A stretch of DNA of 63,441 nucleotides from a virus (taxonomy: Duplodnaviria > Caudoviricetes), in IMG/VR virus record IMGVR_UViG_3300035703_000091, positions 1 through 63,441 of that record; one strand, 5' to 3'. The notes beneath the pieces were generated by a model. It was not told where the DNA came from, made no database searches, and worked only from the letters and a program-made list of their open reading frames with translations. Made by a program: the position numbers and the translations under genes. This document shows positions 15,150 through 58,360 of this stretch, one piece after another (the stretch's first letter is position 1; each line of letters begins with the position of its first letter).

Positions 15150-15186
15150 ACCATACACCGGATCATTCCAGTGTCAACGGACAAAG
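15150..15186 (-). promoter_or_regulatory. Leftward promoter
   Basis: TTTGTCCG-TTGACA-(CTGGAATGATCCGGTG)-TATGGT. Confidence 0.7.
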
Positions 15187-15201: not shown

Positions 15202-15407
15202 TGTAAAACTGCTGTAAAACTGCTCCGCATACGGAGCGCAGACCACCGCTAAGTCATTGAAATGATGGAGCGGGCGAAGGGAATCGAACCCTCGACATAC
15301 AGCTTGGGAAATCTTACGTCTGGAAGGAATCGCAAGGACTTACGGTGTAAACTTGGCCGATCTAAGCCCTTGGAGACGCTAGGGTCGGCCGCGGCGCTGT
15401 AAAACTG
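15202..15407. promoter_or_regulatory. attP arm region: integrase arm-type repeats and IHF-like site
   Basis: TGTAAAACTGC tandem at 15202-15223, TGTAAACT at 15346, TGTAAAACTG at 15398; TTTCAATGACTTA (minus, 15250-15262) is 1 mismatch from WATCAANNNNTTR. Confidence 0.7.
15266..15310 (-). other. attP core = 3' half of tRNA-Gly(CCC)
   Basis: Minus strand TTCCCAAGCTGTATGTCGAGGGTTCGATTCCCTTCGCCCGCTCCA: anticodon loop, T-arm, acceptor 3' strand and CCA; 5' half absent. Confidence 0.88.
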
Positions 15408-16093
15408 TGCGGCCAGGCCGGGTAGGATATATCCGGCACAAATCGGTTGTTCTTCTTCCGGTTTTCGTCCGCCGTGATGATCCTCAGATTCCAAGGAACG
15501 TGAAGGCCGCAGACCTCTCGACCTAGTAGTGGGATCATGTGGTCGACGTGATGGCGCACGCCGGTTGCCTCGGTCAGGATGCGGGCCTCATCGTAGATCG
15601 CGATGATCTGAGCCCTTTGAATGTCGCTCAGAGGCAGCGTTTGGCGGATGATCGCTTGCTGAGATCGCTTTTTCATGCGGCGCCGAGCCAGTCGCACGGA
15701 GTCGGCGTTTTGGGCTGCATAGTTCCGCTGGTAGGCCCTAGCCTCCTCTCGAGTCCTTTCGCGGTGGTCCATCTTCACCCGCATCCAGGTCTCAGGATTT
15801 TCCGCTCGCCACTTGCGACACCGCGCTCGATCACATGAACGGCATAGCGTCGAGCGCCCGTCCTTCGCCTTGCGATTTACAGTGTAGGCGCTCAAAGGGT
15901 GCTCTGCACGGCACCTCGAGCACATCTTCGTCGGCTCCGGTGCCGGGGGCGGTGGCTGCGACCTTATTTTGGCCCGCCGCGCTCTTTGGTAGTCAGCAAA
16001 GCATCTCTTGCAATACGGCCCCGCCGCGCCGGCTCTGACCGTAAACGCCTCAACCGGCTTCTCTTCGCCGCATCTGCTGCACAGCTTCAGCAT
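15362..16093 (-). CDS. HNH endonuclease with two N-terminal Zn-finger repeats
   Basis: CSRC..CKRC and CSRC..CRSC; HHVDHMIPL...CGLHVPWNL...ENRKKNN. Confidence 0.88.
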   Translation of the reverse strand: MLKLCSRCGEEKPVEAFTVRAGAAGPYCKRCFADYQRARRAKIRSQPPPPAPEPTKMCSRCRAEHPLSAYTVNRKAKDGRSTLCRSCDRARCRKWRAENPETWMRVKMDHRERTREEARAYQRNYAAQNADSVRLARRRMKKRSQQAIIRQTLPLSDIQRAQIIAIYDEARILTEATGVRHHVDHMIPLLGREVCGLHVPWNLRIITADENRKKNNRFVPDISYPAWPHSFTAPRPTLASPRA

Positions 16094-16097
16094 CCAT

Positions 16098-16135
16098 AAA
16101 TAGGAAACGCCCCCGATCCGAAGACCGAGGGCGTT
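16098..16135 (-). terminator. Terminator-like hairpin ending the candidate ncRNA
   Basis: AACGCCCTCGGTC-TTCG-GATCGGGGGCGTT then TCCTATTT (13-bp stem, 2 G-U pairs, imperfect U tract). Confidence 0.7.
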
Positions 16136-16905
16136 GGGTCCGCGTGACCGATCGCGCTATCAGATCGGCTCGCCGCCGAAACGGCGGATTCCGGCCGACC
16201 ATCACTCCCATCCATTTCTACCCCGCCTCCGGGTGGCGGCCGCGCCCAAGGGGCAACCGCCGTCTTTCCGGCTGTCATCGGTTTGCCCTTTCGGGCCGTC
16301 GCCATCGGTCGCTACCCGGCTCTCGACCGGACGAGTCTAGGCTACATGGGGCACCCAACCGAAACCCGCGCCTGGCTCCCCGGCCCGGCTTGCACGGGCG
16401 GCCGGCGTCACCACCGGGCGGGGTTCTCGTGTGGCCCGAAGGCCGAAACTGGCCGGGATCACGCGGGTCCGTCTTCAACGGCCGCCACCCCGACTGCGCT
16501 TGGCCTTCGCGCAGCACCGTCTTTCCGGCTGTCCGCTTGGTGGCGGAATCGGTATCCGCCTTTCGCCGGGAGCCGGCGTCCCATTTTCCGCCCTGGGAAC
16601 GGGGTGGACCCTATAACGCTCGGCCCCTGCTTACGACCGCTGGCCCCCGGATTTTGTGATCTACCGGGCGGCGGTTGGTCGAAACTTACGGGGAGGAAAA
16701 GTCGGGCGTCCCTGACCACCTCCCCTGCGGGCCCTGTCACACCGGGCGTCCCGGCAGCGCAGCAGCCCGAATAGTCCGCAGACATCGCACTCTCCGGGGC
16801 CTGCGAGCCCGTCAATCAGGGCGGAGAAGCCCCGGTGCTTGCGCCGTTCTCTCTCGGCCGTCGACCCAACGACGCGGGGTCTGCGCTTACATTCGCCAGA
16901 ATGTG
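16100..16905 (-). ncRNA. Candidate large structured non-coding RNA (~800 nt), family unassigned
   Basis: Own promoter, terminal UUCG hairpin, continuous hairpins, a 12-bp long-range helix, repeated GACAGCCGGAAAGACGG, no credible CDS. Confidence 0.7.
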
Positions 16906-16911
16906 AATGTG

Positions 16912-16939
16912 ACCATACAGGCGTTTATTCCTGCGTCAA
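16912..16939 (-). promoter_or_regulatory. Promoter of the candidate ncRNA
   Basis: TTGACG-(CAGGAATAAACGCCTG)-TATGGT; same architecture as the promoters at 15177 and 58333. Confidence 0.75.
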
Positions 16940-17082
16940 GTGATTTTTTTCTTAGGAGGGTGTCGCCCCGACCTACACGCGCGAGAGACCAATCAGCACG
17001 GAGAGGATGCGGGCCTGCCGGTGGCCGAGGCGACGCCGAACCATAGCCCGCTCACGCGATCCGCGAGGACGGGTGTGGTGGC

Positions 17083-17394
17083 CTACTCGACTTCGTGCTT
17101 CCAGCCGCGGGCGTGGGCGACTTCGTGGCAGGCGATTTGCGCGAAGACCTCGTCGCGGAAGACACACGGGTCGGGCAGGATCACGAAGCCGTCGACATAG
17201 CAGCCGACGATCATGTTGCTGGCCCGGCCGCCGATCTGTCGGCAGGCGGCGTCGATCAGATGGGCGGGGACCACGATCAGGCCCATGGCGATCGGCGGGC
17301 CGCCCACGAACTCGGCCGGCGGGCGCGTGACGAAGTCGGGCGCCGAGGCGGAGACGGTCATGGCCATCGCGGCCGAGAGAGCCAGCTTCATCAT
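17083..17394 (-). CDS. Small secreted protein with HExxH motif
   Basis: Signal peptide MMKLALSAAMAMTVSASA; CHEVAH; four Cys. Confidence 0.7.
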   Translation of the reverse strand: MMKLALSAAMAMTVSASAPDFVTRPPAEFVGGPPIAMGLIVVPAHLIDAACRQIGGRASNMIVGCYVDGFVILPDPCVFRDEVFAQIACHEVAHARGWKHEVE

Positions 17395-27446: not shown

Positions 27447-28055
27447 CTAAAGGTGGATGCAGGCCAGCAAGGCCACGTTGCGGGGGCGGTTCTCGGTGCC
27501 GGCGTTCTGATCGACGGTGACGGCTGCGCCAGCATTGTTCGACGACGCAGGCTTGGACGCCGAGCCGTTGTTGACGCTCGAGGCGTTGCTGATCGGGTGA
27601 GTGTGCGGGCCGATCATCTCGGCCTGGGCCGAAGCCAGGCCACGCCCGGAGTCGATGCCGCGGCCGTCGTCCAGCCCGCGCACGAACTCGCCCCGAAGGT
27701 CGGGCAGGGTCAGGCGCTTGTGCGCGGCCCAATCCGCAGCAGCCGAGGCTCCGCGGGTGGAGCCGGCGCCAGCCGACGTCAGGATCGCGAGCGTCGTGTC
27801 GGCCCACAGGGCGTTGAACAGAGACTCGGTGTCGGCGTTGGCGCGACTCGCGCCCGACGAGGCGTTGCCGATGGTGGAGCCGTTGGCCTTCAGCCACCCG
27901 GTCGGTGCGGTCGTGCGCGCAAACCAGGCCACTGCGCCCGTGTAGCCGGCAGTCGCCAGCGCCGTCACGTCCGCCTTGGCTGAGAGCGCGGTCGTGACCT
28001 CGGATGAACTTACAGGGGTGGCAATCGCTCGCTGCCACGCGCGGGAACCAGGCAT
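27447..28055 (-). CDS. Tail collar domain protein (second copy)
   Basis: GAVAWFARTTAPTGWLKANG...LPDLRGEFVRGLDDGRG...ENRPRNVAL. Confidence 0.85.
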   Translation of the reverse strand: MPGSRAWQRAIATPVSSSEVTTALSAKADVTALATAGYTGAVAWFARTTAPTGWLKANGSTIGNASSGASRANADTESLFNALWADTTLAILTSAGAGSTRGASAAADWAAHKRLTLPDLRGEFVRGLDDGRGIDSGRGLASAQAEMIGPHTHPISNASSVNNGSASKPASSNNAGAAVTVDQNAGTENRPRNVALLACIHL

Positions 28056-58321: not shown

Positions 58322-58360
58322 GATTTTATTCCTTGACGTAGGAATGAGGTCGCGTATGGT
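58322..58360 (+). promoter_or_regulatory. Promoter with ATTCC dyad around -35
   Basis: TTATTCCT-TGACGT-AGGAATGA; TTGACG-N16-TATGGT. Confidence 0.75.

Follow-up and report, generated by a model that had tools for sequence, protein, structure and literature searches.

A gene-free stretch of a phage genome probably encodes a multi-domain non-coding RNA whose core module recurs across phages

What is encoded by the longest gene-free stretch of a compact phage genome? The window analyzed here, all 63,441 nt of IMG/VR virus record IMGVR_UViG_3300035703_000091 (Caudoviricetes), contains such a stretch at positions 16939-16100 of its minus strand, between a small gene ending at 17083 and a nuclease gene starting at 16093. 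Conserved non-coding RNA is rare in compact phage genomes and is usually important where it occurs, as in the nut and put sites and in GOLLD and ROOL. A first-pass annotation of the window, made from its letters, had proposed that the stretch is a single functional large RNA of ~800 nt with an ornate fold. One part of that proposal stands and the other does not. The stretch is probably a non-coding transcription unit, an 800-base gene-free candidate non-coding RNA, and it has a conserved, structured core, which can be assigned with strong support to a widespread and uncatalogued phage RNA family. The idea of one ornate ~800-nt RNA is not retained, as ~650 nt have no relatives.

The family is reached through a 17-mer, GACAGCCGGAAAGACGG, of which the window holds exactly two copies (16533-16517 and 16276-16260; 0.03 expected). 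Scans of IMG/VR for the exact 17-mer yielded loci, one of which had a further block in common with the window, and a scan for that block gave 13 loci. An alignment (A2) and a covariance model (R1) were then built from 24 non-identical sequences, the window included. Against 86 sources (the window and 85 loci), R1 gave 66 hits at E ≤ 1e-6, 25 of which are full modules scoring 70-109 bits, again with the window included. The window has a single full match, in which all parts of the family fold are present: the pseudoknot, helix P1, hairpin H3, UGAC-N and the GAAAGA terminal hairpin. These parts, placed by the R1 alignment, are as follows.

16255-16376, minus strand: the module, matched by R1 over model positions 1-120 of 120 (78.6 bits, E 4e-33).
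16367-16365 with 16351-16349, minus strand: the pseudoknot, GGG with CCC.
16362-16358 with 16282-16278, minus strand: helix P1, UCGGU with ACCGA.
16296-16285, minus strand: hairpin H3, GCCC-GAAA-GGGC.
16277-16273, minus strand: UGAC-A.
16272-16259, minus strand: the terminal hairpin P2, made of GCCG (16272-16269), the loop GAAAGA (16268-16263) and CGGC (16262-16259).

The window was itself among the 24 sequences from which R1 was built; nhmmer searches made with the window alone find L143 (E 2e-15) and L145 (E 7e-11). Read from its 5' end, the first half of the module consists of a variable upstream hairpin, GRGCG-N, the 5' triplet of the pseudoknot, UUU, the P1 5' strand CGGU and a conserved G-rich loop. 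The second half contains one to three variable hairpins, H3 abutting AA, the P1 3' strand ACCG, AUGRC-N, and the GAAAGA terminal hairpin closed by G-C. The partner triplet of the pseudoknot lies 15 nt downstream, flanking the P1 5' strand, and ~45 bases of the module are invariant. Most of the 24 modules listed, that of the window included, have the upstream hairpin, which by eye is GNRA-capped in 7 of the 24. Full modules occur in 24 other viral contigs, with near-identical core letters in contigs whose G+C content (GC) ranges from 46% to 67%.

Is this arrangement backed by the way the sequences vary? Three of its helices, namely the pseudoknot, H3 and the terminal hairpin, are backed by covariation. 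Among the 24 sequences, the pseudoknot is paired in 100%, and two of its three pairs vary in both strands, three sequences having GCG/CGC and two having GGC/GCC. The covariation score of the whole structure is 0.215 versus 0.045 in shuffles, and none of 500 shuffles scores as high. H3 was recognized by script in 23 of the 24 sequences and by eye in the window, and it is built on 21 distinct stems. For the terminal hairpin, examined over the 66 hits, four of five pairs change on both sides (58 such cells versus 14.1 in shuffles), and its score of 0.238 versus 0.061 was likewise reached in 0 of 500 shuffles. Covariation among homologues, which the first-pass annotation had named as a check on its proposal, is seen here for these three helices of the core. 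P1 is invariant in the family, so that covariation neither supports nor refutes it. The script that looked for H3 was misled in the window by a second ACCGAUGG word, which lies at 16305-16311 on the minus strand, within the module and upstream of the real P1 3' strand. Judged by its letters, this word could be an alternative partner for the UCGGU strand and thereby a possible switch. In the modules of two other loci, L189 (4250-4300) and L188 (6690-6730), a long perfect hairpin takes its 3' arm from the bases ahead of the pseudoknot. L188 also has another sequence in place of the G-rich loop, so that a 10-bp local hairpin can form instead of P1. We regard these arrangements as possible alternative folds.

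The surroundings of the module differ from one phage to another, even between its two closest relatives, L143 and L145. L143 has ~650 nt of non-coding DNA around the module, behind a promoter-like site, and in L145 a promoter-like site lies ~25 nt ahead of it. Because these layouts differ, we conclude that the module is a self-contained unit that has been placed in different frames. In the 260 nt downstream of the module in other contigs, a transfer RNA (tRNA) gene was found in 2 of 24 cases and a terminator-like hairpin in 1 of 24, the latter under a strict test that required a perfect stem. Jumbo-phage contigs of 70-150 kb (L157, L162, L164, L167, L181, L190, L192 and similar ones) carry a variant of the module, ~130 nt long, between two tRNA genes in arrays. 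This variant begins right behind the 3' end of one tRNA and stops, by eye, ~7-12 nt ahead of the next.

Other searches for relatives were less productive. Scans of genomes and metagenomes with a 20-mer from the module returned chance coding matches only (2 and 3 loci), and the 5' block of the module had no match in INPHARED. Phages P1 and T4 contain no R1 module, and the one hairpin-pattern match, inside a gene of phage P1, is a chance match. Among alphaproteobacterial genomes, 3 of 151 gave weak hits of 22-25 bits. A blastn search of E. coli genomes found no match and is uninformative, as such short blocks cannot reach the E-value limit in a 28-Gb library. A search of full-text literature (supplements lay outside it) with keywords and with the motif letters as DNA and as RNA matched only unrelated primers.

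What all relatives have in common is the terminal hairpin, [U/G]GAC-N-stem-GAAAGA-stem. At least 114 viral loci in IMG/VR were found with the 17-mer and at least 118 with a looser pattern, some of them chance coding hits. The 17-mer loci lie in the non-coding DNA of very different phages, and their flanks show the hairpin with a varying stem. From 233 loci we obtained 207 unique GGAAAGAC hairpins with three or more further pairs, which comprise 52 distinct stems and are preceded mostly by AUGACA (52) or CUGACA (51). Hairpin and module together recur across phages of 37% to 70% GC. The hairpin also has a preferred orientation. All 22 tRNA genes within 100 nt of it are on the same strand and none on the opposite one, and the nearest long open frame runs in the direction of the hairpin 120 times and against it 38 times. 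This strand bias of tRNAs and open frames argues that the hairpin is an RNA-level element. A same-strand tRNA starts within 200 nt downstream of 17 of 182 hairpins, and 15 of these 17 start 3-13 nt after the stem, and a U-tract follows the hairpin in 18 of the 182. Other copies of the hairpin lie within tRNA arrays, or behind stop codons with promoters far away, and in other phages it closes quite different upstream folds.

Cultured phages carry the hairpin as well, unannotated in GenBank. Their hosts include Stenotrophomonas, Acinetobacter, Klebsiella, Pseudomonas, Cronobacter, E. coli (phage mEp390) and cyanobacteria. In coliphage mEp390 the hairpin (record positions 27449-27471) lies ~400 nt behind the early-left promoter, in a 670-nt leader. 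Six named phages with the hairpin score 24-30 bits with R1, which corresponds to the hairpin and its closing stem and not to the full module. No protein family recurs within 3.5 kb on either side of the hairpin, the best being present in 8 of 86 locus groups. One idea about the loop itself found no support. If GAAAGA formed a pseudoknot with an upstream U-rich word, TTTC should be enriched within 60 nt upstream of the 116 hairpins that lack P1, and its frequency there is 0.17 versus 0.18 in the control. TTCC gave 0.17 in the same test versus 0.09 in the upstream control and 0.17 in the downstream control, and the idea of a tRNA acceptor-arm mimic falls with that of the pseudoknot. The 8-mer GGAAAGAC may resemble a stretch of 23S ribosomal RNA (rRNA) near the macrolide site, and a chance 8-mer match to rRNA is not unlikely.

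We next consider the unit in which the window carries its module. Two features are predicted to bound it.

16912-16939, minus strand: a promoter-like site, TTGACG-N16-TATGGT (promoter scan, 9/12 matches).
16096-16135, minus strand: an intrinsic-terminator-like hairpin with an imperfect U-rich tail (terminator scan; pair probability).

The promoter-like site places the probable transcription start at ~16905. It is one of three sites of the same cassette in the window, with 15177-15150 on the minus strand and 58333-58360 on the plus strand; 0.12 are expected, and three were reached in none of 100 shuffles, which agrees with the first-pass description of a promoter of the same design at 15177 and 58333. 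All three share the extended cassette TTGACR-NN-GGAATRA-N7-TATGGT, and the common spacer word GGAATRA hints at a phage-specific class of promoters or at the site of a regulator. At the other end, the 13-pair hairpin with its four-base UUCG loop (16135-16106), which had likewise been described as the end of the unit, was recovered by the terminator scan and has a mean pair probability of 0.98. Its tail, TCCTATTTAT, has six T among the first eight bases (the scan needs at least five) and is interrupted; the scan scores the whole as an intrinsic terminator. A transcription unit of ~800 nt on the minus strand, from 16939-16912 to 16135-16106, is thus a strongly supported reading of the DNA. Its strand follows from the R1 match together with the promoter and terminator, and not from folding energy, since the complementary strand folds as well.

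Several observations indicate that this unit does not encode a protein. The spread of GC among the three codon positions is at most 0.16 over 16100-16950, and the genes on either side reach 0.4-0.58. No run of low periodicity in the window is longer than 15720-17055, which measures 1350 nt, and the next longest measures 735 nt, as expected from the earlier description of the stretch as the longest gene-free one in a compact genome. None of the six open reading frames (ORFs) of the stretch matched Pfam or PHROGs at E ≤ 0.1. Neither codon periodicity nor these protein families therefore give a coding signal.

How is the RNA between promoter and terminator organized? It is strongly supported that the RNA is modular and not one fold, with a lineage-specific 5' domain, a hairpin that we call hairpin A, a central domain, and a 3' domain that ends in the terminator. 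Outside the module, the following parts were distinguished.

16535-16905, minus strand: the 5' domain, ~370 nt, a chain of stable local hairpins (pair probabilities; fold z-score -2.32).
16516-16534, minus strand: hairpin A, consisting of GGAC-A, stem GCCG, loop GAAAGA and stem CGGU, a hairpin-only copy of the element treated below as a putative handle (probability 0.69).
16425-16515, minus strand: a local multi-hairpin block (pair probabilities), which includes the 5' arm of a long-range helix proposed in the first-pass annotation.
16383-16401, minus strand: hairpin H0, stem GCCC/GGGC with a 9-nt loop, directly upstream of the module (Rfam comparison).
16136-16254, minus strand: the 3' domain, with two local hairpins and the 3' arm (16242-16220) that two competing closing helices share.

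Only 16401-16255 (~150 nt) and the hairpin at 16534-16516 have relatives. Hairpin A scores 8.5 bits with R1, matching only the hairpin part of the model. For the ~650 nt outside these two parts, nhmmer similarity found nothing in the 261 loci that we collected. The whole stretch had no blastn match among INPHARED phages, and a scan for relatives of the hairpin A context gave 13 loci, none related to the window. Another 27 loci were found through the neighboring exonuclease (closest protein 65% identical), and none of them resembles the RNA.

The stretch as a whole folds to -415.8 kcal/mol, with a z-score of -3.6 against 20 shuffles and -3.25 against 25. Nine control windows of the same genome and length range from -1.75 to +1.11, so the folding energy lies beyond both shuffles and controls; comparison with shuffles is a check that the first-pass annotation had also named. 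The complementary strand folds equally well (z-score -4.2). In the 5' domain, helices 16835-16827/16802-16794 and 16725-16719/16696-16690 have pair probabilities of 0.97-1.00. The long-range architecture proposed at first fares worse. Its centerpiece, a perfect 12-bp helix, corresponds to a real inverted repeat (16479-16493 with 16228-16242, 15 nt, 93% complementary), but one that does not exceed chance, since perfect repeats of at least 12 bp occur in 22 of 300 dinucleotide shuffles. As an element of the fold this helix has an ensemble probability of 0.03, or 0.00 once P1 is imposed, versus 0.92-0.98 for the local helices of the block (16509-16498/16449-16437, 16494-16487/16459-16452 and 16481-16477/16473-16469). 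With P1 imposed, a rival closing helix emerges (16424-16410/16237-16220), and the 3' arm of the proposed long-range helix pairs equally well with 16424-16410. The nested pair ACCCGCG/CGCGGGT has a probability of 0.01 and clashes with the covariation-supported pseudoknot. The fine structure first drawn for the stretch is not established.

Does the stretch belong to a known class of RNA? At the gathering score, none of the 4227 models of Rfam 15, GOLLD, ROOL, HEARO, OLE and raiA among them, matched anywhere in the window, which bears out the first-pass statement that no known family could be recognized. A search of 15900-17200 at E ≤ 10 gave seven weak matches (E 0.9-7.5), none from large non-coding RNA families. 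Small ribozymes, riboswitches, RNase P, signal recognition particle (SRP) RNA and transfer-messenger RNA (tmRNA) have no Rfam support in the window or in 26 related loci and were set aside. The twister-sister ribozyme was also rejected. H0 (16401-16383) equals consensus positions 29-47 of that family (RF02681) letter for letter, stem and 9-nt loop alike, but the match covers 19 of 81 positions with 18.1 bits versus a gathering score of 34 (E 0.9), and the remaining ribozyme parts, the internal loop with the cleavage site included, are absent. Unlike twister-sister, the equivalents of H0 in other family members usually carry other loops, GNRA in 7 of 24. GOLLD and ROOL are comparable in being large, structured, phage-borne and of unknown function, and they are often near tRNA genes. 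The stretch differs from them in that only ~150 nt are conserved, no Rfam model matches, and the window holds no tRNA gene according to ARAGORN or the Rfam tRNA model; the initial comparison with giant RNAs near tRNA genes is not borne out on this point.

In form, the nearest likeness may be the boxB hairpin of lambda-type nut sites, which likewise has a short stem of G+C under a purine-rich loop that starts with G, is conserved in the loop and covaries in the stem, and is read as an RNA strand in a phage leader. BoxB, the site of the antiterminator N, has a five-base GNRA-like loop and a boxA upstream. The element described here differs in its six-base, G-C-closed GAAAGA loop preceded by [U/G]GAC-N, in lying also 3-13 nt ahead of tRNAs, and in closing unrelated folds. 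No N-like protein recurs in the 3.5-kb family comparison, and boxA and N protein were not searched by model. In role, the nearest likeness may be the put RNAs or other 3' stem-loop handles. Like HK022 putL and putR, the stretch would give a folded phage RNA directly behind an early promoter, without a protein product, and the leader that carries the GAAAGA hairpin in mEp390 belongs to a coliphage of the HK022 group. The put RNAs consist of two stem-loops in ~70 nt and act in cis on RNA polymerase. The module differs from them in its length of ~125-150 nt, its pseudoknot, and its many positions that are not behind promoters.

What might such an RNA do? With somewhat less than even confidence, we propose a multi-domain RNA in which the GAAAGA hairpin serves as a handle for a trans-acting factor, probably a host one, that marks or protects the 3' ends of the domains. 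The transcript would be a chain of independently folded domains, the handle would be recognized by the factor, and its presence would mark and protect the 3' boundary of each folded domain. An 800-nt precursor would in this way give rise to two or three stable RNAs, and the terminator would limit read-through into the nuclease gene. We favor a host over a phage partner because no protein family recurs within 3.5 kb of the hairpin. Conservation of such breadth suggests that the RNA touches something shared by many bacteria. The module could itself act as a protein sponge, a regulator or a catalyst. A more far-reaching version, which we consider doubtful, would have phage non-coding RNAs universally use the hairpin as their 3' handle, which a conserved factor of bacteria would read much as the histone mRNA stem-loop is read in eukaryotes. 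In that case the module may be a new class of ribo-regulator, even a catalytic or ligand-binding one, and the 800-nt RNA a poly-domain precursor cut at its handles.

Several findings weigh against the handle proposal. The pseudoknot has just 3 bp, and its compensatory changes come from five sequences, two of which are near-duplicates. Thermodynamic folding of the window misses the family helix P1 (probability ~0), which calls for caution with every energy-based helix in the stretch. The excess of folding is modest when taken by piece: the z-score is -2.32 for the 5' part (3 of 100 shuffles as good), -0.75 for the middle and -1.29 for the 3' part. For ~650 of the ~800 nt no relatives could be detected, and the case for function there rests on fold energy. 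The exact search patterns fix the loop and part of the prefix, so that only stems and flanks are free evidence. No tRNA and no U-tract follows about 150 of the 182 hairpins, and the 3'-end role is to that extent an extrapolation. The search for a partner spanned 3.5 kb on each side. Finally, among the sequencing runs searched, no RNA run is listed as containing the stretch, and the one run that is listed comes from the probable source DNA sample.

Other explanations must be weighed against the handle proposal. It is unlikely, in our judgement, that the stretch acts in cis as a put- or nut-type antitermination leader, in which the RNA or a hairpin-bound protein modifies polymerase so that it reads through 16135-16106 into the nuclease and later genes. 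The sequence of promoter, long structured leader, strong terminator and a gene start 12 nt on without its own promoter is what such a leader would look like, and the hairpin in the leader of mEp390 fits it too. However, the genes past the nuclease are served by the second promoter of the same cassette (15177-15150), neither an N-like nor a Q-like family recurs nearby, and 18 of 182 hairpins have a U-tract of their own behind them. Hairpins that lie just before tRNAs, within tRNA arrays, or behind stop codons and remote from promoters are also hard to reconcile with antitermination.

We think it quite improbable that most of the stretch is inert spacer, a decaying intergenic region in which a mobile module and hairpin landed, perhaps together with the nuclease gene, and which otherwise folds through its GC-richness. 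The lack of relatives for the remaining ~650 nt would be expected on this account. So would the adjoining nuclease gene, which is of a mobile type and of foreign composition (GC 0.58 versus 0.66), and the near-identical core letters in phages of such different GC, which suggest spread. Yet the stretch begins exactly with a promoter of the cassette that belongs to this phage, and none of the control windows, which match it in GC, reaches its fold z-score. Elsewhere the genome is compact, 735 nt being the next longest run without genes, and in other loci nuclease homologues show no link to the motif, lying near it in 2 only.

Least probable is a single ~800-nt ornate RNA with one global fold, a new class comparable to GOLLD and ROOL: the whole-stretch z-score of -3.3 to -3.6, some long-range helices of the minimum-energy fold at probability ~0.5 and the non-coding DNA around the module in L143 would suit it, but nothing beyond ~150 nt is conserved even in L143 and L145, its flagship 12-bp helix does not rise above chance, L145 shows that the module can stand by itself behind a promoter-like site, and a tRNA or a terminator-like hairpin can follow within 260 nt elsewhere.

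Returning to the multi-domain RNA with a hairpin handle, the window contributes a full pseudoknotted module with covariation support, an adjoining hairpin-only copy, and a phage promoter and terminator that frame both. Module and hairpin are absent from Rfam and unannotated in GenBank, and they occur in settings as different as jumbo-phage tRNA arrays, lambdoid early leaders and this phage of soil or subsurface. If the partner were identified, it could show a general step in the way that phage RNA matures or that hosts are taken over, and recognition of the motif would correct records that place tiny ORFs over it. Such ORFs are annotated beside or over the hairpin region in L270 (2229-2471, mEp390 gp36) and L292 (376-559, FoX2 gp30 and gp31), where the sequence looks like structured leaders; those over the motif in mEp390 and FoX2 may be mis-annotations.

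One further feature lies downstream of the RNA and outside it.

15362-16093, minus strand: an endonuclease VII/HNH-type nuclease gene (phrog_1035, E 1.2e-28).

This gene starts 12 nt past the terminator stem and lacks both a promoter and a Shine-Dalgarno sequence of its own. The sole G-run sits within the 3' arm of the terminator (region 16091-16135, minus strand). A 15-codon frame begins at 16097, 4 nt ahead of the gene start. We considered the nuclease as a regular partner of the motif and rejected it, as homologues lie near the motif in only two other loci.

Two further observations concern the GAAAGA hairpin in other phages. L075 (1-1500) has five of these hairpins in 1 kb of non-coding sequence, with a tRNA at 1393-1464. 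A weak hammerhead match (HH9), whose 21.8 bits fall short of the gathering score of 52, lies no more than 5 nt behind one of the five. L056, L068, L100, L271, L277, L279 and L280 carry a different conserved RNA fold, which starts with CCCCAGCGGGCGGUGGGGC and ends in the same GCGGACA-hairpin.

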